From sequence record OK040907: a stretch of 64,000 bases of DNA; one strand, written 5' to 3'. Source of the stretch: Enterobacteria phage Ac3. A program made the translations under genes and the position numbers. Below, one piece after another: positions 2,448 through 62,308 of the stretch. Numbering within the stretch: the first letter of the stretch is position 1; the number at the start of each line of letters is the position of its first letter. The notes beneath the pieces are model-generated. The model did not search any database and was not told where the DNA came from. It was given only the letters and a program-made list of their open reading frames with translations.

Positions 2448-4267
2448 TACTGGCTCATCCATTCTTTACGAAGGTCAGCATTATCTCCCATGAGCATTTC
2501 AAAAAGCTCTTTCCAGTTCTCAGGAAGTTTAACAACATCATATACTGGATTTTGAATCATCTCACGATATTCAGATTTTTCCAAAGAGCCAAGTCCCTTA
2601 ATATAACGGATACTATGTTTAGGTAGAGCATCTTTAGCACTCTCATATTCAGCGACTGTATAAAACCATTCTTGTTTTTTACCGACCTGAGCGATGATTA
2701 CAGGAGTTTTGACAAAGCGAATTCGTCCTTGCTCAAACAGTTCTGGCCAATTACTAAAAAATCCAAGAAGAGAAGGATAAATGCTTCCTAGACCATCATG
2801 GTCAGCATCAGTCATAATAGCAATATTGCGATAATTCAAGTTTTCAGCTTTTTCACCAAGAACTAGACCAGTGATTGCGCAAATATCAAATAGTTCTTTG
2901 TTTTTAAGCATATCGGCATATGACATACCCCAGCTATTAAGAACTTTACCGCGCAATGGATAACCACCATGAAGTTCTTTATCGCGAACATCAATAAGAT
3001 ATCCGATAGCTGAATCACCCTCAGTCAAGAACAATGTAGTGTCAGCATCTTTACCGCAAAGATTCGCTTTAATATGTTTATGAACCTTAGCTTTAGAAGC
3101 CTTTTTAGCTGCTTTAGTTTCTGCTGCTTTTTCTGCCGCCAATTTACGAGCCAAAGCAGCTTCAATAATCGGCATTAAAATTGCTTCATTATTTAGAATA
3201 GCGCGTGAAATCTTTTTAGCATCAAGCTGAATATGACTACGAATTTCGCCAAATGGAGAAGTCAAACGCTCTTTAGTTTGAGAATCAAATCGCATGTTTT
3301 TCATATCACGAACAAACATAACGATAGTCAAACATTCTTTGACACGTGCTTTAGTTACATCAATTTTGAATTTACGTTTGATTTGTGGAATAAGGTCTTC
3401 ACAAATATCATCCATAACGCAGTCAATGTGATGGCCACCATTCTTAGTGTGAATGTTATTCACGTAAGTTAATTGACGAAATCCATCCGGTGAACGACCA
3501 ACCGCAATAGAACAATTTTCTTGTTCTTGAACGATAGCATGTTCATCATACTGTCGTGCATATTTCTTAAAATTGCCCTGAACCTTTTTACCATTAAAGG
3601 TAAATTGAATATCAGGATAAACGACAGCAAGTGTCTGGAGACGATCCAGTGTAATGTCAAGATAAACCTGGGACAGCTCATTAGTTTCAAATGACATAAA
3701 ATCAGGAATGAAAGTAACACGAGTTCCTTTCCATTTTCCAGGAATAGTTTCCCAGGATTTATTTTCCATACCATTTGAACAACGAACTACAATATTATTT
3801 TGACCATCGCCAGTTTCACCAACAAACATCACAGAAAAAATGTTTGTCAAACTAGAACCAACGCCATTCATACCACCGGTGACGCGTTCTTTATCATCAC
3901 CGAAGTTACCACCTGCTTTTGGAATAGTCCAGGCAGCAACAGGACCAGGAATTTCTTCACCAGTAGGTGTTTTAACCATCGCTTGTGGAATACCACGACC
4001 GTTATCTTCAACTGTTACTTGATTGTTTTTGATAGTAACATTAATTTTATTTGCGAATTTAAACTTAGTACGAATACCTTCATCTACTGAGTTATCGATA
4101 ATTTCATCAATAAGCTTAACAAGACCAGGTACATACTGAACACTTTCCCATTTACCAAACAGAAAGCGCTCATGCATTTCATTAGCAGAAGAGCCAATAT
4201 ACATGCCGCTACGCTTTTTGATATGTTCAATATCGCTCAGAATTTTAATTTCATTCTTAATCATCAC
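2447..4267 (-). CDS. 39: DNA topoisomerase II large subunit, single fused ORF (GyrB-like ATPase plus C-terminal part)
   Basis: 606-aa ORF starting MMIKNEIKILSDIEHIKKRSGMYIGS; continuous ORF without the split gene 39/gene 60 arrangement. Confidence 0.9.
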   Translation of the reverse strand: MMIKNEIKILSDIEHIKKRSGMYIGSSANEMHERFLFGKWESVQYVPGLVKLIDEIIDNSVDEGIRTKFKFANKINVTIKNNQVTVEDNGRGIPQAMVKTPTGEEIPGPVAAWTIPKAGGNFGDDKERVTGGMNGVGSSLTNIFSVMFVGETGDGQNNIVVRCSNGMENKSWETIPGKWKGTRVTFIPDFMSFETNELSQVYLDITLDRLQTLAVVYPDIQFTFNGKKVQGNFKKYARQYDEHAIVQEQENCSIAVGRSPDGFRQLTYVNNIHTKNGGHHIDCVMDDICEDLIPQIKRKFKIDVTKARVKECLTIVMFVRDMKNMRFDSQTKERLTSPFGEIRSHIQLDAKKISRAILNNEAILMPIIEAALARKLAAEKAAETKAAKKASKAKVHKHIKANLCGKDADTTLFLTEGDSAIGYLIDVRDKELHGGYPLRGKVLNSWGMSYADMLKNKELFDICAITGLVLGEKAENLNYRNIAIMTDADHDGLGSIYPSLLGFFSNWPELFEQGRIRFVKTPVIIAQVGKKQEWFYTVAEYESAKDALPKHSIRYIKGLGSLEKSEYREMIQNPVYDVVKLPENWKELFEMLMGDNADLRKEWMSQ

Positions 4268-4334: not shown

Positions 4335-4603
4335 TATTTAAAACGAATAGTTGAATCCTTAAAGAACAGCCCAGAACATACTGTTCCTTCTACTTTCTGC
4401 CCAGTAGGTCCAATAGCACGAAATCCAGTATGTTGGAAATCATTTTCAGAGCAACCGAACCAGTTATATCCAGTGATTTCAATATTCGTAAAACCACTTG
4501 ATGATAAAATTTTAGTTGCATTATCAGCATCAGTACATCCTACTAAAGATACTGCTAATACTAATGCTGCAATAGAACGATTAATATATTTCATAGTTTT
4601 CAC
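4334..4603 (-). CDS. small lipoprotein (signal peptide with lipobox LVGC)
   Basis: 89-aa ORF, N-terminal MKTMKYINRSIAALVLAVSLVGC. Confidence 0.6.
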   Translation of the reverse strand: MKTMKYINRSIAALVLAVSLVGCTDADNATKILSSSGFTNIEITGYNWFGCSENDFQHTGFRAIGPTGQKVEGTVCSGLFFKDSTIRFK

Positions 4604-4974
4604 TTAAATTTAATGGCTTGAAGGAGACTAATAATTCTCAAACGGCTTCTTTCATCTTTAACTGTAAAAGAAAGAGGGTCGCCAGATTTCATGGTAATAG
4701 TGCATTCAAAATCAAAATCTTCAGTGACTTCTTCGAAGAAGTCAAATTCTTCATCATAAATTAGAACACTACTTTGCAGACTGTGAAGAGTTTTTCCAGC
4801 ATTTCTGCTAACTGCTGTACTAATCATTGTAACATTATGACCTTTCATATCTTCGACGATAAATTCACTAGTCAATATTACAGCATTAATAGAACTATTC
4901 CTATTACTAGCAGAAAGTAGAAATTTCTGTTCTTCACCTTCACGAATACGATATTTCTTACCAATTTTAAACAT
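4600..4974 (-). CDS. hypothetical protein
   Basis: 124-aa ORF, 4-nt overlap with downstream gene, native codon usage. Confidence 0.55.
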   Translation of the reverse strand: MFKIGKKYRIREGEEQKFLLSASNRNSSINAVILTSEFIVEDMKGHNVTMISTAVSRNAGKTLHSLQSSVLIYDEEFDFFEEVTEDFDFECTITMKSGDPLSFTVKDERSRLRIISLLQAIKFK

Positions 4975-5155: not shown

Positions 5156-5599
5156 TTATTCCTTAAAATGTGCTTTCAACATCTGATACAAGGACCATGC
5201 CTGTTCATTATTTTCAATAGTAACTTTCATGACTGGAAATTCTGTGAAATCTTCTATTTGTTCTTGCTCTTTCTCTTCCTGCTCTTGCTCTTCAGCTGCC
5301 TGGTATGGATTTTCCACTTCATCAAAGAACACAGCTTCACTCGTTGAAAGCCAGATAAAATCTTCATCCAAAATATCTTTACCAGAAGATAACGCCAATT
5401 TTCCACTAGATGTCACAAGTTTAGTAGGACGACCAAGATAGTCAATATCTGTAACTCTAAAAGGTTCCATACCAAGACGTCGTGCATAAATTCCGTTTTC
5501 AGTATGGTCCTTGATAAAATCTTCTTGAGCTTGTTTATTTTTAAATTGATACCATTTATTAACTTCAAATTTAATAGCCATTAATAAGTTTCCTTCCAA
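5156..5599 (-). CDS. hypothetical acidic protein
   Basis: 147-aa ORF with [12 protein letters not shown] acidic tract. Confidence 0.55.
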
Positions 5600-5796
5600 T
5601 AAGTTGTACCATCTTCAGTAATTTCGCGAAACACACCATAAATTGGTTGTTTATCACCAACTTTTTCGTACACATAAACCGAAGTCAAGTGAGTAAACTT
5701 ATTAGTATGTTCCTTTTGAACTACTACCAGATTTGGATCAAATAATACATCTTCAAATTCGTCATTAGTGCAATTCTGAACAATTTTACGTTTCAT
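5581..5796 (-). CDS. hypothetical protein
   Basis: 71-aa ORF in operon context. Confidence 0.45.
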
Positions 5797-5809
5797 TACA
5801 ATTTCCTCA

Positions 5810-6091
5810 TTAATTGAACAGTGGAGCGATGCGTTTCAGAAGAGTAGCAGCACCTTTAGCGAATTTTACATCATGAAAAACAGTTTCTTCTTCCGTTACA
5901 ACACGAACTTTAATGTTTTCACAATCCCAATTTTTACGAACAATCTTCAAAAGCTGCAGTAAATCTTTACATTCAGCAATATCGATAACACATCCACGAG
6001 AATCTTCCATTATCGCACGATAACCGTAAGCCATACCATAATCGTTGAAAGATTGCTCGATGATAATTAAGTTTTCCATTTTATTCTCCAA
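5810..6091 (-). CDS. hypothetical protein
   Basis: 93-aa ORF. Confidence 0.5.
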   Translation of the reverse strand: MENKMENLIIIEQSFNDYGMAYGYRAIMEDSRGCVIDIAECKDLLQLLKIVRKNWDCENIKVRVVTEEETVFHDVKFAKGAATLLKRIAPLFN

Positions 6092-6186
6092 GTTATTTTC
6101 TGTATCAGTAGTTGATATTGATATAGTACCATAATCAACTACTGATGTATATAGTTTTATGAAAAAATTTTAAACTTTATGCAAAT

Positions 6187-6606
6187 TTATGCTAAAGCTG
6201 CTTCGCACCATTTTTTAATTTGGAATTCAGGAACTACCATGAACTGGCCTGCAAAAACAATATTGTAGAGCTTGACACCATCTTCTACCCAACGGTCCGA
6301 AATAAAACCAGCGACTTGATTCGTTGTCCATGGAGTTCCATCTGTTGCCGCCGCAATTGTGAATTTATGGTCTTTTACAACTAAAACTGAAGAACAAAGT
6401 TTCCATTTAAATGCGCTTTCTTCTGGCTCAATGAACTGACTTGAGACATAGCCAATGTTACCATCAGCGTCACGAACTTTAACCTCGTTACGACCAAAAA
6501 CTGGATCACTTACAGAAAGAACTTCAACCAGCTTTCCTGCAACTTTAGAACGAGAAGCAACGGATACATATACGTAATCACCAGTAGAGAGATTTACAAT
6601 ATTCAT
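6187..6606 (-). CDS. hypothetical protein, member 1 of a tandem paralog triplet
   Basis: 139 aa; shares N-terminal S.ASRSK.AG.LVEV motif and C-terminal W.EDG.KLYN.VF.G.F.VV motif with 6616-7089 and 7162-7671. Confidence 0.6.
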   Translation of the reverse strand: MNIVNLSTGDYVYVSVASRSKVAGKLVEVLSVSDPVFGRNEVKVRDADGNIGYVSSQFIEPEESAFKWKLCSSVLVVKDHKFTIAAATDGTPWTTNQVAGFISDRWVEDGVKLYNIVFAGQFMVVPEFQIKKWCEAALA

Positions 6607-6615
6607 AATAATTCC

Positions 6616-7089
6616 TTAAGCTTTACGAGGAGAAGCATAACGAGTGATTTCAGATTCTTCAACAACCCGGAAGTCACCTAAGAATACGATATTGTAGAGC
6701 TTTTCACCATCTTCAACCCATTGGTCTGTGATGAAGCCACACATCCTATCAGTTTTACTTGGACCAGCGAAATCATCAATATAATCGAATTCTTCATCAG
6801 TTACAAATTCAACGCCTTTACACAACGCCCATTTAAATTGTGCATTAGACTCAGTGGATTCAACTTCTTCAACAGAAGTAAAATGAGAGCTAACACGAGT
6901 TTCCAGAAATTTAGGACTTACGTAAGCGTACTGAGTTTCAGTTTTTCCAGAACTAGGAATGATTCGAACTTTAACTTCTTTAACACGACCAGTACCATTA
7001 GTACGAAGTCCTACCACTTCAACTAGACGACCTGCAGCTTTAGAACGAGATGCAGACGATACACGCTTAATTTCACCGATAGTAATCAT
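6616..7089 (-). CDS. hypothetical protein, member 2 of the tandem paralog triplet
   Basis: 157 aa; same shared motifs. Confidence 0.6.
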   Translation of the reverse strand: MITIGEIKRVSSASRSKAAGRLVEVVGLRTNGTGRVKEVKVRIIPSSGKTETQYAYVSPKFLETRVSSHFTSVEEVESTESNAQFKWALCKGVEFVTDEEFDYIDDFAGPSKTDRMCGFITDQWVEDGEKLYNIVFLGDFRVVEESEITRYASPRKA

Positions 7090-7126
7090 AATTTTTCTCT
7101 CTTTGTTGTTAAGATTTATTCTCCAT

Positions 7127-7149
7127 GAGAGCCATTATAACAGGCTCTC
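7127..7149 (-). terminator. intergenic hairpin (7-bp stem, 9-nt loop)
   Basis: gagagcc-attataaca-ggctctc between paralog genes. Confidence 0.3.
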
Positions 7150-7161
7150 TATAAAGTAAAC

Positions 7162-7671
7162 TTAATTAAGGATATTAATTACTGCACTGCGTGGAACTAC
7201 ACTAAAATCACCTGCATGAACAACGTTCAGAAGTTCAACACCATCTTCAAGCCACTGGTCAGTTACCCAACCACTTACTGGACCAGCAAATGGTCGACGA
7301 ATTGAAACAGCTTTACACAACAAGTCAGTAGGCTCGATAGGCTTAACCAGAGTACCGTACATACAAGCAATGTCCATATCAAAGTGGAGACCAGTGCTAA
7401 CAGGTGCTTCTTCAATCAACAATTCGAAATCTTGTTCTGTAATATAGACCGTAGATATTGTACCATATAAGTTTTTAATTCTTAAGAATGATACAGATGA
7501 AGCTGTGGCAGTTGATGCAAAAATAGGACCAGCATTTACAATAGTGAAACCTTTACCTTGGGTAACACCAATAAGCTCGCAAAACTTACTATAAGAACCA
7601 TTATTTGCTTCAAACCAGTTTACTTGCTTTTCGTCTTTCAGGATGTAAGTAGCTGTAGTACTGATATTCAT
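7162..7671 (-). CDS. hypothetical protein, member 3 of the tandem paralog triplet
   Basis: 169 aa; C-terminal WLEDGVELLNVVHAGDFSVVP. Confidence 0.6.
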   Translation of the reverse strand: MNISTTATYILKDEKQVNWFEANNGSYSKFCELIGVTQGKGFTIVNAGPIFASTATASSVSFLRIKNLYGTISTVYITEQDFELLIEEAPVSTGLHFDMDIACMYGTLVKPIEPTDLLCKAVSIRRPFAGPVSGWVTDQWLEDGVELLNVVHAGDFSVVPRSAVINILN

Positions 7672-7683
7672 GATGTTTTCCCC

Positions 7684-8187
7684 TTAATCTAAGGTAATAA
7701 AGCCTTTTAATTCGGCATGTGACTTGCGGAACATTACTTGATGACCGCCAATGATAACTTGGTCATCAGGTACTTCGTATACAGCGAGATAAAATCCTTT
7801 AGAAGCTAATTCTTCGCGCTCTTCTCGTGTGAACCATCTCATCATATCATATTCGCTAGCGAAAGCAAAATGATAAAGAGCTATAAACCATCCTGGAATA
7901 TAGTGATCTACGCCTACATATTCTTCTTTCTCAAAATTAGTATTAATTGCTATATTAGCATTTTTAACTAATAATTTGTCTTCATGCGGCACAGGAATTC
8001 TTTTATTATCATTACTATGATGCATAAAATTGGGTCTGTCATAACCTACGCGTAATAACCACTCTTCGCTCCATGAATCTATTATACTCCTGTATGGCGT
8101 TATTTGAACACAAAGATCTCGACGTATTGTTATAGCATCTTCATAATTAAGAATACTAAATGATGATTCAACACGATAAATTTTCAT
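7684..8187 (-). CDS. hypothetical protein
   Basis: start moved to internal Met (MKIYRVESS) which has GAGGA RBS; the longer ORF start would lie inside promoter 8215-8244. Confidence 0.5.
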   Translation of the reverse strand: MKIYRVESSFSILNYEDAITIRRDLCVQITPYRSIIDSWSEEWLLRVGYDRPNFMHHSNDNKRIPVPHEDKLLVKNANIAINTNFEKEEYVGVDHYIPGWFIALYHFAFASEYDMMRWFTREEREELASKGFYLAVYEVPDDQVIIGGHQVMFRKSHAELKGFITLD

Positions 8188-8214
8188 TTTATTATCCTCA
8201 GTAGCTATGGTGTT

Positions 8215-8244
8215 ATAATACCACAACTAACCGAGGAAGTAAAT
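8215..8244 (-). promoter_or_regulatory. early-type promoter (ATTTAC - 18 nt - TATTAT)
   Basis: plus ataata 8215-8220, gtaaat 8239-8244. Confidence 0.45.
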
Positions 8245-8250
8245 AACTTT

Positions 8251-8934
8251 TTATCGTTTTGTTGGAAGAGATAGAGGATCGCATTCTTCCTCTGATGGAG
8301 CGTCTTCAAGACCCATAGCATAGCGCAAAGCATACTTCATCATCAGGATGTCTTTCGCACAGTCATGAATAGAATCATGCGCAACGAATCCATCTAAAGT
8401 TCCTTTTGGAAGAGGACACGTGGTCATATCACGAACAAGGAGAAGTGCTTCAATTCTGGTACGAATATCACGCTGATTCCAGAATTTACATGGTTCTAAC
8501 TTAAATGTGTCAAGCTCATTCTCGGAAACGCCGTTAAGACGTTGAATATCGCGAATGAGATCGACTAAAATTGGAAAATCAAACGACATTCCACGGCACC
8601 AGCCTTGAGATTTCCAAGGATCGATATTATGCGCATTGATGTAATCATTAAATTTTGCAATACCATCGATAGTGCTTACATCTTCATCTGATGGCGCAAT
8701 ATTTTTTCGAGCTTCAGGAGATTGATTCTTCCACCATTCGATAGTGCTTTTAGTAAAAAGACGATGTCCTTTTTGGCTTTTTAAATCAAATTTGATTTTA
8801 ATGCCACGTGAAACTAATTCATCAAATGTTTCAACGACTTCTGGATTAGGGTCAAAAGCAATTACAGCCAAATCAATAACAGCTGCTTTTTCACCGCTTC
8901 CCATTGTTTCAAAATCTATAATAAAATCAAACAT
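8251..8934 (-). CDS. dexA: exonuclease A (DnaQ-like 3'-5' exonuclease)
   Basis: 227-aa ORF MFDFIIDFETMGSG...; size and position before dda match T4 dexA. Confidence 0.85.
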   Translation of the reverse strand: MFDFIIDFETMGSGEKAAVIDLAVIAFDPNPEVVETFDELVSRGIKIKFDLKSQKGHRLFTKSTIEWWKNQSPEARKNIAPSDEDVSTIDGIAKFNDYINAHNIDPWKSQGWCRGMSFDFPILVDLIRDIQRLNGVSENELDTFKLEPCKFWNQRDIRTRIEALLLVRDMTTCPLPKGTLDGFVAHDSIHDCAKDILMMKYALRYAMGLEDAPSEEECDPLSLPTKR

Positions 8935-9176
8935 TAAATTTTGCGAGCCAGATCACGGATCTGACCAACAGTGTAGTCCTGGATGTACACTTTGTTGATC
9001 GGTTCATCGATGAATTTTGCCATGCTTTCGATATCCTTTTGGATCTCTTCCAGAGAGTAAACAATTTTCAGCGCTTTTTCGCGAATCGTAACGTTGTCCG
9101 GACCCGGGTTCTCCTGGATTACTGCTTTAACGTTCGTCATCAGAGATTTGAACTGATACCAAGACAGCTCAATCAT
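8934..9176 (-). CDS. small hypothetical protein in the dexA.1 position, with E. coli-optimised-looking codon usage
   Basis: 80 aa from internal Met MIELSWYQF; ctg/ccg/cgt-rich codons unlike neighbours; paralog pattern with 9169-9429; ATGATTGA overlap upstream and TAATG overlap with dexA. Confidence 0.55.
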   Translation of the reverse strand: MIELSWYQFKSLMTNVKAVIQENPGPDNVTIREKALKIVYSLEEIQKDIESMAKFIDEPINKVYIQDYTVGQIRDLARKI

Positions 9177-31960: not shown

Positions 31961-32674
31961 ATGAACTATAAACTGATCTACGAAAAACTGATCAGCAACG
32001 CCAAATCCCGTAAACTGGACTGTTACACCGAGTCTCATCACATTATCCCGCGCTGCCTGAATGGCTCCGATGACGCGAGCAACCTGGTAGACCTGACCCC
32101 TGAGGAACATTACGTTGCACACCAGCTCCTGGTTAAAATTTATCCGTCCGAGCCAAAACTGATTTACGCTGCCAACATGATGACTGTATCCACTAAATAT
32201 GCTAAACGCAATAACAAAACGTTCGGTTGGATCCGTCGCAAACTGTGGGAAATCGAAAAAAACAAAGAATTCTCTCAGGAAACCCGTAAGAAAATGTCCG
32301 ATGCGGTTGCCAACAAGGCGCGCCTGACCTGCCCGCACTGTGGTAAATCTGGCCTGTCTGGTAACATGAATCGTTGGCACTTCGATAATTGCCCGAACCA
32401 CCCGAATCCGAAAGTGCGTCCTCCGATGTCTAAAGAACACCGTAATAACATCAGCAACGGTCTGAAAGCAATTATCCTGGAGGAAACCTCTTGCGAATTC
32501 TGCGGTATGATCGGCAAGAAATGCGTGATTGCAGCTCACCGTAACTTCTGTAAGAAAAACCCGAACGGCCGTAAGAAAACCGAGAAAACCGGTACTTGCG
32601 TGCACTGCGGTAAAGTTACGACCTTTGGCAACCTGAGCCGTTGGCACAACGACAACTGCAAGCACAAACACTAA
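31961..32674 (+). CDS. HNH homing-endonuclease-like protein with C-terminal Cys-rich zinc-finger repeats; codon-optimised-looking
   Basis: 237-aa plus-strand ORF with ESHHIIPRCLNGSDDASNLVDLTPEEHYVAH motif; ctg/ccg/cgt codons; stop overlaps gene 46 stop (convergent). Confidence 0.65.
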   Translation: MNYKLIYEKLISNAKSRKLDCYTESHHIIPRCLNGSDDASNLVDLTPEEHYVAHQLLVKIYPSEPKLIYAANMMTVSTKYAKRNNKTFGWIRRKLWEIEKNKEFSQETRKKMSDAVANKARLTCPHCGKSGLSGNMNRWHFDNCPNHPNPKVRPPMSKEHRNNISNGLKAIILEETSCEFCGMIGKKCVIAAHRNFCKKNPNGRKKTEKTGTCVHCGKVTTFGNLSRWHNDNCKHKH

Positions 32675-34359
32675 TTGATCGTAGCAACGGAGAAACGACC
32701 CACTTTCTCCATTTTGATGTGCTGACCGTAGTCCTGTGGGTCGTGGTCTTTGTGGCTGATAATGAAAAAGTTAGTATCTTTCAGGCCATCGAGAATTTTA
32801 GCGACGTTTTTGATACCTTCGGCGTCGAACGCGCCATCGTACACTTCATCCAGGAACAGGCAAGAGATTTTTACACCAGAGACTTTTTCGGCGATGTCAC
32901 GCCAGGTGAACAGGAGGGCGATATCGATACGTGCCTTTTCGCCTTGGGAGAAGGATGCATAAGAGAAATCTTCGCGGCCGCGGGATTTGATAGTTTCGTT
33001 GAATTCCTCGTCCAGGGTGAAAACATAGTCCGCCTCCATAATTTTCAGATAATGGTTGATCTGTTTGTTGAACAGCGGGATGTATTTCTTAATGATCGCG
33101 CCCTTGATGCCGCTGTCTTTCAGCATGTCGGTCAGGATGCCACGGTGGTATTTTTCCATCACCAGGTTGGTTTTAGTCTTCACGATCTTATCCAGCTCTT
33201 CCTGCAGGAGGGCAATTTCGTCCGCGTGGTCAATGAATTCAGAGGAAGCTTTTTCAATGGCAGCTTTAACTTTCTTAGCTTTGTCAACCGTGGTAATCAG
33301 GGACTGTTTCTTGTTACGAATATCGTTCGCCAGAGACTGTTGGGTCTTAATGTTATCACGATATTCGTCCACCAGGACTTTCAGGTTATCGCGGTGGGTG
33401 GACAGTTGTTCAAAAGAGTGGGTGCATTCGCTCACCTTATCTTTAATTTTGCTCACAACTTTATCACCGCTGGACAGTTGAGACAGGCAGGTCGGACACA
33501 GACCGCCCTCGTGGTACATGTTGATAACTTTGTTGTAGCTATCGATTTTGGATTTAATCAGCACGGCCTCCTGGCCAATTTTGTTAAAAGCATCAGTAGG
33601 GTCTTCGTCCAGCACGATGTTGACCAGACGTTCATTCGCTTCCTCGATTTCGCTTTTCAGGGTACGAGCTTCTTTAGCCAGATCGTCGTACATGTTCTGC
33701 AGGCGCGTCAGGTTGTCACCGGTCAGTTTCTTCTGACGTTCTACGTTGTCGTTGTAGATCTTGATCTGTTGGATAATAGAGTCTTTCTTCACATCCAGTA
33801 CCTGGTTCTGAGAGTTCAGTTCACGGATCAGTGCTTTGTTCAGTTTGTCCATCTCCGCCAGGGTGCCAACCTCCAGGAGGTCTTCGACCAGCTTACGGCG
33901 TGCTGGAGTGCTCAGGCCCATGAACGGAGTGTAACCCGCAGTGCCGAGCACAACAATCTGCTTGAAGCTAGCGTAAGACATACCGATCAGCTGTTCGAAC
34001 TCGGCCTGAAAATCTTTGGAAGAGGCAGATTCGTTCAGACGGGTGCCGTTCACAGTGATTTCAAAGACGTTTGGTTTTTGACCGCGTTTGATGTAATATT
34101 TCTTTTCGTCATATTCCATCCACAGTTCTACCAGGAGTTCTTTCTTATTGGTGCTGTTGATCAGCTGGCCTTTCTTAACGTCGCGGAACGGTTTACCGAA
34201 GAGGCCGAAGGTAATAGCCTCCAGCATGGTAGATTTACCGCCACCGTTACGACCAGTGATCAGGGTTTTCTGAACTTTGTCCAGCTGGATATCAACGCCG
34301 TTCTGGCCTACGCTCATAATGTTCTTGTATTTAACACGGTTCAGTTTAAAGGATTTCAT
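32671..34359 (-). CDS. 46: recombination endonuclease subunit (SbcC/Rad50-like ATPase)
   Basis: 562-aa ORF, Walker A GRNGGGKST, coiled coil; protein is gp46-like but DNA is E. coli-optimised-looking. Confidence 0.85.
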   Translation of the reverse strand: MKSFKLNRVKYKNIMSVGQNGVDIQLDKVQKTLITGRNGGGKSTMLEAITFGLFGKPFRDVKKGQLINSTNKKELLVELWMEYDEKKYYIKRGQKPNVFEITVNGTRLNESASSKDFQAEFEQLIGMSYASFKQIVVLGTAGYTPFMGLSTPARRKLVEDLLEVGTLAEMDKLNKALIRELNSQNQVLDVKKDSIIQQIKIYNDNVERQKKLTGDNLTRLQNMYDDLAKEARTLKSEIEEANERLVNIVLDEDPTDAFNKIGQEAVLIKSKIDSYNKVINMYHEGGLCPTCLSQLSSGDKVVSKIKDKVSECTHSFEQLSTHRDNLKVLVDEYRDNIKTQQSLANDIRNKKQSLITTVDKAKKVKAAIEKASSEFIDHADEIALLQEELDKIVKTKTNLVMEKYHRGILTDMLKDSGIKGAIIKKYIPLFNKQINHYLKIMEADYVFTLDEEFNETIKSRGREDFSYASFSQGEKARIDIALLFTWRDIAEKVSGVKISCLFLDEVYDGAFDAEGIKNVAKILDGLKDTNFFIISHKDHDPQDYGQHIKMEKVGRFSVATIN

Positions 34360-53558: not shown

Positions 53559-54523
53559 TTTAATAATACCGTTTCAGCGATTTCTTCCCAACCGTTTTTG
53601 TCGGTCATAATAAAGTCAGCAAGATAAAGTGCAGTACGCAGTGAAACATTACGTAAACGATTAACATTGACTTTCATCCATGATAATGCTTTATAAGTTT
53701 CTTCATCAGAAAGACCGCGCTTTTGCATCATGTCGGTTGAAAGAATAACATCTTCAACCCTGACCATAATTTCTTCATTAGTGTGAACACCCAAATCCAA
53801 ATAAACTGAGCGGGACACTAATGCTTGTAAATGTGGAGCAAGTTTAGTACCACGGTCTAATTCGCGGTCAATGTCAACGTTTGTGATAAAAACAATCGTT
53901 CCTTTAAATTCAAACTCACGCTCAATGCCTTTTTCTTCTAAGTAAGAAGATGCGGTGCTCCAGCAGACTTTACGGGTCTCTCCAGTGTCCAGAGCAGCTT
54001 TCAGAAGATTAAGAATGTCCATATCAGAGAAAACATCCACATCATCAATCAAAAGGACAGAATTCTCTTCACGATTATTCCAAAGCTGTTCATAAAGACC
54101 AATACCAGAGATTTTACCATTAATGCTTTTATACTCAATGTATCCAATATCATTTGCTTTATTTAAAGCTTTATCTAAAGAATACGTTTTACCAATACCT
54201 GCTGCTCCCGAGATAATTAATGAACGAATGTTTCCGTTAATAATACCATTCGTCATCATTCCCATAACATTAAATCTTTTATTAATGCGGGTTTTCATAT
54301 CTTCATACGATTCTTTAACTTCTTCAACTTTTACACCATCATATGAAATGTCTGATTTGTAAACCCAAACACCGCGACGCTTACCGTCAATTTCAACAAA
54401 AACTTTACCATCTCCTTGTGCATCTACCGGAGCATTATCTGGGAACCATTCGCCTAAGAGCTCAAAAGTTCCAGAGATTTCTTTACCGAAGTAGATACCC
54501 TTATTGATAGTTACAGTTTTCAT
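53555..54523 (-). CDS. P-loop NTPase
   Basis: 322 aa from Met MKTVTINKG; Walker A GAAGIGKT and Walker B LLIDDVD. Confidence 0.55.
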   Translation of the reverse strand: MKTVTINKGIYFGKEISGTFELLGEWFPDNAPVDAQGDGKVFVEIDGKRRGVWVYKSDISYDGVKVEEVKESYEDMKTRINKRFNVMGMMTNGIINGNIRSLIISGAAGIGKTYSLDKALNKANDIGYIEYKSINGKISGIGLYEQLWNNREENSVLLIDDVDVFSDMDILNLLKAALDTGETRKVCWSTASSYLEEKGIEREFEFKGTIVFITNVDIDRELDRGTKLAPHLQALVSRSVYLDLGVHTNEEIMVRVEDVILSTDMMQKRGLSDEETYKALSWMKVNVNRLRNVSLRTALYLADFIMTDKNGWEEIAETVLLK

Positions 54524-54557
54524 TTTATTCTCCAAATCTGTATCAGTTGATAGTTGT

Positions 54558-54587
54558 ATAGTACCATAAAGCTTTATGCTTGTAAAC
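54558..54587 (-). promoter_or_regulatory. early promoter (GTTTAC - 18 nt - TACTAT) with conserved leader
   Basis: plus atagta 54558-54563, gtaaac 54582-54587. Confidence 0.55.
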
Positions 54588-54616
54588 AACTTTGTGAAAA
54601 ATTTTTGAAATAAAAA

Positions 54617-54636
54617 AGGGAGCCCGAAGGCTCCCT
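54617..54636 (-). terminator. hairpin with UUCG tetraloop 3' of the nucleotidyltransferase gene
   Basis: plus agggagcc-cgaa-ggctccct. Confidence 0.5.
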
Positions 54637-54637
54637 A

Positions 54638-55648
54638 TTACTTATAGTAGGAGCGGTGGTTCTCCAGGTAAACTTTTTCCAGAAAGTCATCCCAGAAACC
54701 CATGTCAACCTTTTGCTGCATGCCATTCTTGGATGCTTCCGTGCTCGCAGCCTCCACCTGATCAACTACGTCCTCGAGGAATTCCTGCACGGTTTTGAAC
54801 GGGTGCTTGCCCAGTTTGACATCCAGGATAAACGGCGCATCCTGCAGTGGGTAGATCAGGTCGCCGGTTTTGTAAATTTCCAGGAGCTGCAGGCCACCGC
54901 GGCATGCATGGGACAGAGCTTTCCAGTCGATGCCTTCGTTTGCCTCTGCTTTGCGGGCGCGTTCGCCGTATTCAGCATCCAGTTTATTCAGGGATTGTTT
55001 CAGTTCGATCAGGCTCAGGGTAGTCTGATATTTACGACCCAGCACCGTATAGAAAGTTTGCGGGCCGGTTTTTTCGTGGTTGTGAAACACCCATTCACAG
55101 AATTCGTTTTCCGGCAGGCGGTGTTTGATATCTTCGATTTTGGTACGGCGTTGACCCTGAGTGCCGTCTTCGCGATAAACGTTGCGCTGGTCCGGGATCT
55201 GATTCACGACTTTCAGGACGTCGCGCAGAGCGGCCAGACGGGAGCCCTTAACACCATATTTAGAGGCTTGTTTGCGTACATAGCCCAGGTAAGATTTCAT
55301 ATTGGTAGTGTAGAAGCGGCTGCGGTTGTCCTGAATGAATTTCCAAACGTCAGGCAGATCGCTCTTAACCACCAGTTCTGGCGGCGTATGCAGCATGTCG
55401 AGTGCCACGGTCTCACCGTCCGCAGCCAGTTTGAAAAAATACTTGAGGCTATACAGTTCGTGGTCGATGTCATCTTTGGTATTCTTGCTAGAGGTATTGT
55501 TGGTGTTTTTAGACATGTGTTCTTTCACGTTGCCGATCAGAATGTCACGTGCCGGTGGCACGAAGATCTCTTTGAAGTCGACATCGCTTTCCGGGGTGGA
55601 AGTGCCGTACAGGTGGCTGCCAAAGTAGGATTTCATCACAGTCTTCAT
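54638..55648 (-). CDS. Pol-beta-superfamily nucleotidyltransferase-like protein; codon-optimised-looking
   Basis: 336-aa ORF with N-terminal GS-x11-DVD motif (YFGSHLYGTSTPESDVDF) and candidate third acidic residue in ALDMLH; ctg/ccg/cgt-rich DNA. Confidence 0.55.
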   Translation of the reverse strand: MKTVMKSYFGSHLYGTSTPESDVDFKEIFVPPARDILIGNVKEHMSKNTNNTSSKNTKDDIDHELYSLKYFFKLAADGETVALDMLHTPPELVVKSDLPDVWKFIQDNRSRFYTTNMKSYLGYVRKQASKYGVKGSRLAALRDVLKVVNQIPDQRNVYREDGTQGQRRTKIEDIKHRLPENEFCEWVFHNHEKTGPQTFYTVLGRKYQTTLSLIELKQSLNKLDAEYGERARKAEANEGIDWKALSHACRGGLQLLEIYKTGDLIYPLQDAPFILDVKLGKHPFKTVQEFLEDVVDQVEAASTEASKNGMQQKVDMGFWDDFLEKVYLENHRSYYK

Positions 55649-56109
55649 TATTCAGCTTTGTATTCGATCACCGGACACACTTTCGCTTTGCGCGCTTTCA
55701 GGAACTCAACAATGATAGATTTCTTCGGTTGGATTGGCGGCAGGCCTTTGTAAGCGCGATCGATGTTTTCAACGTGCAGCGCGTAATCTTTCTTCCATTT
55801 GTAGTCTTTGTATTTCTCACGCAGGTGCGCCGGAATCACGAAGGAGCCGATAATCAGGAGAACCACCAGGAGTGCCAGAATGAACGCGGATGGCAGGAGG
55901 GTCCACAGGCTACCGAAGATCAGCCAGCGCTGCAGGGATTCAGCACAGATAATAGTCAGACCAACCAGGATGGCACAACCGAAGATGGAAACGAAAAACG
56001 TCGGGATGGCGATAGACCAGAAGTACGCGCACAGGGTTTTAGGGCGCTGCCACTCGTCGTTAAACAGTTTGAACAGCTTATAGTGCCAAGAGTTTTCATT
56101 AATGATCAT
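55648..56109 (-). CDS. two-transmembrane-helix membrane protein; codon-optimised-looking
   Basis: 153-aa ORF with two long hydrophobic segments; TAATG overlap with the nucleotidyltransferase gene; native RBS upstream. Confidence 0.55.
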   Translation of the reverse strand: MIINENSWHYKLFKLFNDEWQRPKTLCAYFWSIAIPTFFVSIFGCAILVGLTIICAESLQRWLIFGSLWTLLPSAFILALLVVLLIIGSFVIPAHLREKYKDYKWKKDYALHVENIDRAYKGLPPIQPKKSIIVEFLKARKAKVCPVIEYKAE

Positions 56110-59917: not shown

Positions 59918-60080
59918 ATATTAATTTCCAGGAGTTTTAAAATAATTCGCTTTTGCTTAAATATTTCCATAGTTAAATGACTAGTATCTTTTTGACCGAT
60001 TCCAATGGCAAAACCTTTATTAACAGCGAGTTCAATTAAATTATCAAGCTCACGTAACACTTCGTATTGTAACTCAAAAC
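59914..60080 (-). pseudogene. 5'-truncated remnant of a native gene
   Basis: native-composition ORF tail of about 55 codons with no start codon; its upstream boundary is the edge of the recoded island 60084-60963. Confidence 0.35.
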
Positions 60081-60083
60081 TAT

Positions 60084-60514
60084 TTATTTCGGTTTACCTT
60101 CCTTCACGAAGTCTGGGTACGGATAAAAGCCAGAGTAGAAACCTTCGCCTTTGTGGTTGATACAACCTTTGTTGGAACAATAGCACCAGTAATCGAAATC
60201 GCAAGCCATTTCGTCGTTGCACAGGGCGAAAACGACCGGCCATTTACATTTTTCACAGTGCGCGTTTTTCAGGATGGAAGTCTGGGATACCGCCAGGTGA
60301 CTTTCAGGCAGTATTCCTCCACATGCTGTTTGCGACCTTTCTTGTCGATGAAGGTGTATTCAACGAAGGTACCGATGTAATCTTTATCCACGTCGTGCGG
60401 AGAGTTGATCGGGCACTTAGTACGGCAGATGCGTTCCCACTGACGAATGATTACAGCCTTGTTTTTCGGGTCGAACGGGTGTGGATAATGTACTTTTACA
60501 GCAGCGGCTCCCAA
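60084..60514 (-). pseudogene. Cys-rich protein gene split across two reading frames; codon-optimised-looking
   Basis: frame A (TTG start in track) has protein-like sequence to about 60300; frame B continues with HCEKCKWPVVFALCNDEMACDFDYWCYCSNKGCINHKGEG... to a TAA at 60084-60086; no ATG. Confidence 0.4.
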
Positions 60515-60963
60515 TCAACGATTACGATTTCCAGTTTGGAAGAATAGGTGTCCAGGATACCTTCAATGATGTCCCAGTTGCCTTTACCGATGCCGGCGCC
60601 GATGCGCGGCATGTAGATGGTTGGTTTGATCAGTTTGTTTTCACCGAATTCGTTCAGCTCCAGCATACAATTCATCAGCGCAGAATATTCAAAGTTTGGG
60701 CCCGGCTGGAACTGAGTGTACAGGTTAAAACAGTACGCTTTGTGGGTGCGAAAGTACTTTTCATACACGGAGTAGCTACCCAGTTTAGTCACGTCGCCCC
60801 ATTCGGTCTGCAGCTTGTCAGCTTCCAGGATTTTCGGAAACGCTTTGGTCAGCTGACCGGCTACACCCGCTTTCATGGTATGGAAGCAGTTACAGCCGTG
60901 AGCGATGTTTTTACCTTCGGCAAACAGCGCTACGATATCGCCTTTGATGTATTTGACAATCAT
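60496..60963 (-). CDS. macro-domain protein (Poa1p-like ADP-ribose-1''-phosphate phosphatase family); codon-optimised-looking
   Basis: 155-aa ORF with IAHGCNCFHTMKAGVAGQL and YMPRIGAGIGKGNWD motifs resembling Poa1p; ATGA overlap with upstream native gene. Confidence 0.55.
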   Translation of the reverse strand: MIVKYIKGDIVALFAEGKNIAHGCNCFHTMKAGVAGQLTKAFPKILEADKLQTEWGDVTKLGSYSVYEKYFRTHKAYCFNLYTQFQPGPNFEYSALMNCMLELNEFGENKLIKPTIYMPRIGAGIGKGNWDIIEGILDTYSSKLEIVIVDWEPLL

Positions 60964-61301
60964 CTAGTACTCAATCCTCGATTATAAGAATCTACCAAAC
61001 GGTCAACCATTGAATGACAAGCGGCTTTATCTTTCTCCTCCGCAACTGAACATTCTAAAGTATTCCACTTTTTAGCATATCGTTTTAATAATGTATCGTT
61101 TTTGTATCTGCTTGATTTATCTCTTTCTCCGTCTTTGTATGCATATATTAATTTCTGTGCAAATTCAGCTTGGCATGCTTTATTTTTCCCACAATAATCT
61201 GCCGCAGTGCGGTTTACATACTCTCTAATTTCAGTATATGATGTATCTGCTAACGCAGAAAATGAAATTAATCCTATACATAAAACCAAAATTTTAGTCA
61301 T
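60960..61301 (-). CDS. secreted hypothetical protein
   Basis: 113-aa ORF with signal peptide MTKILVLCIGLISFSALA and four Cys. Confidence 0.5.
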   Translation of the reverse strand: MTKILVLCIGLISFSALADTSYTEIREYVNRTAADYCGKNKACQAEFAQKLIYAYKDGERDKSSRYKNDTLLKRYAKKWNTLECSVAEEKDKAACHSMVDRLVDSYNRGLSTR

Positions 61302-61839
61302 TTACTATTTCCAAAAGTTTATTATTTTTAAGGTAATTAGCCTTTTCTAGGACTTCAGAAGCATATTTAGAACCTGCTTTAACATTCCATCCCGAATTAT
61401 AAGAGGATATTGCTTTTCTTATATCGCCCTTATGTATATTTAACCAATAAGAAAGTTCAATGTACGCCCAGGAAGCTGAATTGGACCGTTTATTCAACAT
61501 TCTTTTTATTTCAGCATCGGTCATATTATAACCAAGTTCCTTAACTCTTGCTCGCATAGTAGGCAAATAATTTTGGAACATTCCATAAGCGTGATGCTTT
61601 GGTTTAGATTTTAAATTAACTCCGCCAGAGCTTTCTTGCCATAAAATAGCAGCCATTATATGACCTAATCCACTCTTGTGGATGTTTTTGTGTGTTTTAT
61701 ATTTTCCATCCTTAGAAAATTGTTCCCCGAATTGATACGCGTAACGCATGTTATCGAGTTGGACATTACTGAAAGTATGCTCGGAGCTATGTGCCATCAT
61801 TGAAATGGCCAATAGACCAGCGAGTAGTGCTTTTCTCAT
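61294..61839 (-). CDS. lytic transglycosylase-like protein (SLT domain)
   Basis: 181-aa ORF with signal peptide and WQESSGG...AYGMFQ motif. Confidence 0.6.
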   Translation of the reverse strand: MRKALLAGLLAISMMAHSSEHTFSNVQLDNMRYAYQFGEQFSKDGKYKTHKNIHKSGLGHIMAAILWQESSGGVNLKSKPKHHAYGMFQNYLPTMRARVKELGYNMTDAEIKRMLNKRSNSASWAYIELSYWLNIHKGDIRKAISSYNSGWNVKAGSKYASEVLEKANYLKNNKLLEIVND

Positions 61840-61846
61840 GCTTACC

Positions 61847-62308
61847 TCATTGAGTTTTAATTACTGCTTTAGAAGCCTTTCCTGGTAAACGACGACTGTT
61901 AATAATTGCCATCCTACATTGGAGTGACGGGTCTTTGAACTTCTCATTAGGTTTACAAACCGTAAATCCAAGCCAAAGATTTCCATCTGTGATTTCTAAA
62001 CGTCCAGGACGATATTCAACCCCATCAATAAAATCCTCGTCAATGTCAGGACGCGGAGGCATACTCAGAAATTCATTAACTTCTAAAACATGGTCTTTTA
62101 TTTTATGGAATAATTCAAAAACGTATGTCTCATCAATCTCCCGTTGAATTGCGCGATCAAGAAGATGCTGAGAATATTTTAGATGAAACGATGAGACCCC
62201 TGCTGCTTTTGATGCCTCACGAATCTCATTGTTAATTTGACGAAACTCCGACTCAAAGTGACGACGAAGCTTATTTCGACGGATAAAAACTTCTGTATTG
62301 ATAGTCAT
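61847..62308 (-). CDS. regB: sequence-specific endoribonuclease RegB
   Basis: 153-aa ORF MTINTEVFIRRNKLRRHFESEFRQ...; promoter 62335-62364 upstream. Confidence 0.85.
   Translation of the reverse strand: MTINTEVFIRRNKLRRHFESEFRQINNEIREASKAAGVSSFHLKYSQHLLDRAIQREIDETYVFELFHKIKDHVLEVNEFLSMPPRPDIDEDFIDGVEYRPGRLEITDGNLWLGFTVCKPNEKFKDPSLQCRMAIINSRRLPGKASKAVIKTQ

Follow-up and report, generated by a model that had tools for sequence, protein, structure and literature searches.

Three adjacent genes of Enterobacteria phage Ac3 (record OK040907) encode proteins whose ends look alike and whose middles differ, which raises the question of whether they are a novel set of diversifying paralogues or members of a family already described, and of what each protein might do. 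The window considered here is the whole 64,000-nucleotide stretch that was analyzed, the left end of a T4-like genome. The lengths, positions, and strand that the initial annotation gave for the three ORFs, which span 6187-7671, were confirmed:

6187-6606, minus strand: second motB copy (orthologue of RB51ncORF010c), 139 aa
6616-7089, minus strand: motB, 157 aa
7162-7671, minus strand: motB.1, 169 aa

Identity of the three genes

The triplet is not an uncharacterized one: the genes are annotated as motB, motB-like, and motB.1. Between 5800 and 9200 the window is 98.3% identical in nucleotide sequence to phage RB51 at the same coordinates, and each of the seven proteins encoded from cef through dexA matches its RB51 counterpart at 100% identity, the trio being annotated there as RB51ncORF010c ("similar to motB"), motB, and motB.1. 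The order of transcription (dexA, motB.2, motB.1, motB, the second motB copy, ORF009, and cef) is that of RB51, and comparison with RB51 and T4 places the trio in the dexA-cef interval of the early region of a Tevenvirinae genome. The layout is that of an operon, with gaps of 12 and 9 nt, ribosome-binding sites, and a promoter-like site ahead of motB. The Pfam motB profile PF17613, which has a curated gathering threshold of 25 bits, scores 141.2 bits for the 157-aa protein, 72.1 for the 139-aa protein, and 33.7 for the 169-aa protein, all above threshold. The match is full length, including the KOW-like SRSK N-terminal domain, for the 157- and 139-aa proteins and not for the 169-aa protein. 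PHROGs assigns the 139- and 157-aa proteins to phrog_1671 (MotB-like) and the 169-aa protein to phrog_2333 (motB.1).

We consider it highly probable that these genes are the Tevenvirinae motB family (motB.1, motB, and a second copy), expressed as early minus-strand genes, a judgment that takes in the roles proposed below. The trio was already known, since earlier work states that MotB and MotB.1 share a C-terminal domain, possibly from duplication, sorts the homologues into categories that differ in their N-terminal domain, and notes multiple copies in several phages, RB69 having "two copies of motB" (Patterson-West et al. 2021, PMC7827196). The trio is thus an annotated family with a Pfam entry, and finding it here is real but ordinary and adds little. 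What is new is minor: exchange of the genes as a cassette, modeling of the shared domain as an SH3/Tudor-like barrel, the acidic character of the second copy, and a frameshift in the T4 reference sequence. The last three of these could help those who study T4 early genes.

Domain architecture and the candidate DNA-binding surface

All three proteins had been thought to share a motif at each end. This is true of the 139- and 157-aa proteins, which align end to end at 40% identity (BLASTP, E 1e-29) and both carry S-x-ASRSK-x-AG-x-LVEV and W-VEDG-x-KLYNIVF-x-G-x-F-x-VV; for the 169-aa protein only the C-terminal half of the claim stands. Its last 30-42 residues are all that match the other two (57% and 50% identity, E 1e-10 and 2e-11), its C-terminal motif is a degenerate version, WLEDGVELLNVVHAGDFSVV, and at the position of the SRSK motif it reads WFEANNGSYSKFCEL, so that the N-terminal motif is absent. 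All of these alignments are nonetheless far beyond chance. Profile comparison with hhalign gave a probability of 2.9% for the N-terminal domains of MotB and MotB.1, which are unrelated, and 99.3% over 50 columns (E 1.7e-20) for the C-terminal domains, which are homologous as a whole. The domain common to the trio is all-beta and ~55-70 residues long, with a core of the form G-[FW]-[IV]-[TS]-D-[QR]-W-[VL]-EDG...N-[IV]-V...G-x-F-x-VV that stays invariant whichever N-terminal domain a variant carries. Profiles of these domains searched against all six frames of the 64-kb window found no further significant copy. An internal duplication, in which the N- and C-terminal domains of MotB would be homologous, was rejected (hhalign probability 0.2%), and MotB matched no solved structure by sequence at E values up to 1.

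In the AlphaFold2 models of both MotB and MotB.1, a linker whose pLDDT drops below 50 separates two all-beta domains. In MotB (mean pLDDT 81), a basic KOW/SH3-like N-terminal domain (residues 1-63) is followed by a disordered acidic linker (64-84, of which 66-82 fall below 50) and the all-beta C-terminal domain (85-153). The protein matches PF17613 over residues 1-153 (E 3.5e-41, profile positions 2-158 of 162) and phrog_1671 with E 2.7e-68. In MotB.1 (mean pLDDT 75), an N-terminal domain unlike that of MotB (1-89) is joined by a disordered linker (90-114, with 90-110 below 50) to the MotB-like C-terminal domain (115-169); phrog_2333 covers residues 1-169 (E 6.7e-77) and PF17613 residues 96-164 (profile positions 85-153). 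The 139-aa copy combines the MotB-type N-terminal barrel with the shared C-terminal domain, keeps both motifs, and matches phrog_1671 with E 9.8e-51 and PF17613 in two stretches. Its linker is cut to ~5 residues, ~16-22 fewer than in MotB, and its N-terminal barrel lacks a 6-residue loop. The variable cores described in the initial annotation are largely the flexible linker that joins the domains in all three proteins; in MotB the core is mostly this disordered segment, which the 139-aa copy nearly lacks.

What MotB does is known best from T4, where the protein is made early and in abundance (Patterson-West et al. 2018 and 2021). It binds DNA tightly and independently of sequence, whether that of the host or the modified DNA of the phage, co-purifies with H-NS and StpA only when DNA is present, and alters the H-NS footprint (PMC6070864, PMC7827196). 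[quoted passage not shown] The window MotB is 46% identical to T4 MotB from end to end (E 6e-48) and ~85% identical to that of RB69. It shares with the T4 protein the family, the two-domain layout, the SRSK and TDQWVEDG motifs, and the dexA-cef slot, but is an allele of the RB69/Mosigvirus type with a pI of 5.4, whereas T4 MotB is basic overall (pI 9.2); the window protein is acidic because its C-terminal domain carries a charge of -7. By homology, it would act as T4 MotB does, and we assume that its DNA binding equals that of T4 MotB. The suggestion that tandem paralogues such as these serve host takeover or anti-defense is borne out in its first part, in that these are tandem early-region paralogues and MotB is a published takeover factor (PMC6070864, PMC7827196), whereas we found no evidence for anti-defense.

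Either domain of MotB has been considered capable of DNA binding, and the shared C-terminal domain has been proposed, on the basis of HHpred, to be an OB-fold, cold-shock-like DNA-binding domain (PMC7827196). Taken at face value, that proposal would make the trio three redundant nucleoid-coating proteins that bind DNA mainly through the C-terminal OB-fold, with the N-terminal domains as modulators, and it fits with the C-terminal domain being the only part common to the trio, the most conserved part, and one whose core is invariant across N-terminal variants. We regard this as unlikely. In our models the shared domain may be an SH3/Tudor-like barrel, at odds with the published OB-fold; the likeness we considered is to small SH3-like barrels whose targets are nucleic acids or chromatin, such as the KOW domains of NusG and Spt5, the Tudor domains of 53BP1 and PHF19, and PWWP domains. 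If the domain is indeed SH3/Tudor-like and acidic, the likely DNA-binding surface of MotB shifts to the N-terminal domain. In a set of 37 MotB homologues, every N-terminal domain carries a positive net charge, between +1 and +8, and the mean charge of the linker is -4.7; values for the C-terminal domain, with its invariant acidic/aromatic motif, spread from -7 to +3. For this reason the basic N-terminal barrel is the probable DNA-binding part, and the shared C-terminal barrel would more likely serve to bind a common partner or to self-associate than to provide the main contact with DNA. Judged from charge and conservation, this division of labor between an N-terminal DNA binder and a C-terminal partner binder is the more plausible one.

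Selection, the second motB copy, and exchange between phages

The conserved ends and variable cores could be read as the mark of fast-diversifying anti-defense or host-takeover paralogues, with the termini as a scaffold and the cores selected for new specificities. Several features would fit an arms race of this kind: the early region that holds the genes is mosaic and dispensable, the cassette is exchanged between genera, the window and T4 share 46% identity in MotB and 100% in dexA, and motB.1 occurs in several length forms with swapped N-terminal domains. The rates of substitution argue otherwise. A dN/dS comparison among the three paralogues, as had been suggested, turned out to be meaningless, with synonymous sites saturated (pS 0.62-0.74, dS 1.3 to undefined), and we therefore used orthologues from eight loci. 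The resulting dN/dS was 0.09-0.19 for the 139-aa gene (dS 0.5-0.7), 0.15-0.25 for motB, and 0.27-0.30 for motB.1. All three genes are thus maintained under purifying selection and are not diversifying quickly, and the description of the paralogues as diversified does not apply, the MotB core being mostly a disordered linker that is deleted from the 139-aa copy. The variation that does exist reflects exchange of old alleles and domain shuffling and is not recent, as the paralogue pS values indicate, and a link to any defense system was neither found nor published. An arms race is consequently a quite improbable explanation. Gene conversion as the cause of the conserved motifs is likewise unsupported: within the motif windows the paralogues have low pN (0.11-0.25) while pS is still 0.4-0.7, so the motifs are kept by selection at the protein level and not by recent conversion.

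The 139-aa gene sits directly after motB, as in Mosigvirus phages, starting 9 nt downstream with its own ribosome-binding site. It does not differ in kind from the second copies in RB51, RB32 (RB32ORF010c), and RB69, and is 100% identical to RB51ncORF010c. Of 773 matching phage records, 207 contain a copy that is 80% identical or more; the remainder have motB only. The N-terminal domain has lost the MotB-type basic charge and has a net charge of -1 to -3 in all eight orthologues. One might see in this gene a redundant motB duplicate in decay, which would be shedding its linker and basic residues without a function of its own; it is shorter than motB by the 6-residue loop and the ~16-22 linker residues, it lacks the typical positive charge, and the T4 genome has no second copy at all. 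Against this, the 139-codon frame is intact at all eight loci (two genera and Carettavirus) with amino acid identities of 84-100%, dN/dS is as low as given above, both motifs and the ribosome-binding site are kept, and the gene recurs in those 207 phage records, all of which make decay very improbable. The distinct and conserved charge design argues instead for a separate role. With its acidic N-terminal domain, near absence of a linker, purifying selection, and 9-nt adjacency to motB, the copy, which would be co-transcribed with motB, may be a sub-functionalized partner or modulator of MotB, not a redundant copy or second DNA coater. The acidic domain, the missing linker, and the purifying selection appear to be new, as we did not find them in the literature consulted on motB copies.

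Comparison with T4 showed flanks of ~92% nucleotide identity around an interval, 5872-7656, that is diverged or absent; MotB is 46% and MotB.1 38% identical to the T4 proteins, and ORF009 and the second copy are missing there. A different partner was found in the Mosigvirus Shigella phage SHSML-52-1, for which a single blastn alignment at 81% identity covers exactly the three genes:

6182-7681, strand not given: three-gene cassette in common with Mosigvirus phages (blastn)

Identity with SHSML-52-1 falls to 69% for dexA and to 65% for the cef protein. Because one alignment spans exactly the three genes between less similar flanks, the trio appears to move between phage genera as a block, replacing T4-type alleles. 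Within Tequatrovirus, motB.1 alone is also swapped, giving proteins of 169, 164, or 145 aa where motB and the second copy are 99-100% identical. Database homologues carry the MotB.1-type C-terminal domain on at least four N-terminal architectures, one of them a MotB-type SRSR head, and the motB.1 forms fall at 143-145, 164-169, ~180, and ~250 aa with their N-terminal domains swapped.

Between cef and the second motB copy, too, gene content varies from phage to phage. In the window this slot holds ORF009 (5810-6079, 89-93 aa; 89 aa here), which is absent from T4. In Mosigvirus loci the same slot (2980-3504, locus numbering) encodes a protein of 174 aa with 35% identity to motB.2; the motB pair of these phages therefore has motB.2 on its opposite flank.

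Taken further, the domain models allow a speculation on how the trio might work. The C-terminal barrel would be a Tudor/SH3-like module, and not a DNA-binding OB-fold, that serves one common partner or self-association of the family, and it would be fitted with swappable nucleic-acid-binding heads, namely a basic KOW-like domain in MotB, an acidic KOW-like domain in the second copy, and an LSm-like domain in MotB.1. The trio would then be a cooperating set that travels between genera, in which the acidic copy tunes the coating of DNA by MotB. We offer this model tentatively and regard it, as a whole, as doubtful.

MotB.1, the T4 reference, and intergenic elements

The N-terminal domain of MotB.1 has been described as LSm-like and placed in a GoF/MotB.1/Frd.2 family (Kim et al. 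2025, PMC12152347). Such a domain is recognized by a five-stranded bent beta sheet, and our model of the window protein has strands at residues 8-11, 42-49, 60-67, 72-78, and 85-88 with a helix at 26-37 (pLDDT ~75-84). MotB.1 would couple the shared C-terminal module to an LSm-like domain, and so possibly to RNA. Deletion and amber mutants of T4 motB.1 were without phenotype in laboratory conditions (PMC12152347). The window protein belongs to the same PHROG (2333) as T4 MotB.1, occupies the same position upstream of motB, and is 38% identical to it (E 7e-31) in an alignment that covers the N-terminal domain and the first part of the C-terminal one. It differs from the T4 protein in its length of 169 aa, a 21-residue linker insert, PVSTGLHFDMDIACMYGTLVKP, and a complete C-terminal domain.

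The incomplete C-terminal domain of T4 MotB.1 can be traced to the reference sequence:

3292-3651 (numbering of the locus extracted from NC_000866.4), minus strand: T4 motB.1, with a frameshift near 3305; compare window 7162-7260

In this record (NC_000866.4 / AF158101.6) the protein has 119 aa and ends within the conserved core at …GWVTDQWIGRWR and a stop, and the next frame continues with LEDGVELLNVVHAGEYSVVPRSAVVAILN to its own stop. The cause is one extra G, the reference reading ATTGGAAGAT where other sequences read ATTGAAGAT; because of this single base the reference MotB.1 stops inside the core. The extra G is absent from all other T4 records listed (HM137666, KJ477684-6, MT984581, and several OZ and OL records) and from RB55 and RB59. 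These records annotate or encode 143 aa with the full domain, a form seen on 256 contigs. Kim et al. 2025 synthesized their genes from NC_000866.4 and quote MotB.1 at 13.8 kDa (PMC12152347). This is the mass of the 119-aa form, and the published expression work on MotB.1 therefore appears to have used the short protein.

The disordered linker of MotB.1 (window 7342-7407, residues ~89-110) contains a short conserved motif, HFDMDIACMYGTLVKP, that the T4-type forms of 143-145 aa are without. Other family variants have similar strings; for example, proteins that carry a MotB-type head contain VTDTDVASAYACPVLP, and a variant of 252 aa has FIDFDVASMYVRPIKP in its N-terminus. The motif could be a docking peptide. 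Outside the trio, the 124-aa product of an RB32ORF005c-like gene (4600-4974, minus strand) matches the MotB.1 N-terminal profile weakly (E 0.075, positions 1-84), and the adjoining gene is goF (5156-5581). The RB32ORF005c-like protein may be another LSm-like member of the GoF/MotB.1/Frd.2 family.

Two hairpins lie beside the coding sequences:

7109-7165, minus strand: motB.1-motB intergenic hairpin, RNA fold -19.1 kcal/mol, z -4.1
6104-6146, minus strand: hairpin 3′ of the 139-aa gene at the end of the block, 13-bp outer stem, -22.3 kcal/mol, z -4.8

The loop of the first holds TATAAT (7139-7134), separated by a 16-nt spacer from an upstream GTTTAC (7161-7156), an arrangement that by eye resembles a T4 early promoter and would be a putative promoter just upstream of motB. 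T4 has a hairpin at the same place (3170-3210, locus numbering; z -3.5) with the stem GGGACC/GGTCCC, compared with GAGAGCC/GGCTCTC in the window, the pairing being kept. Through this hairpin, use of the promoter may be tied to the termination or processing of the transcript from upstream. In a consensus scan of 5500-9000, promoter sites were no more frequent than in shuffled sequence and no terminators were called; the hairpin at 6104-6146 went uncalled because it has no T run. Elsewhere in the window, G+C is higher at 32001-34000, 54001-56000, and 60001-62000 (0.41-0.48, compared with ~0.35 in the remainder), with GC skew near zero.
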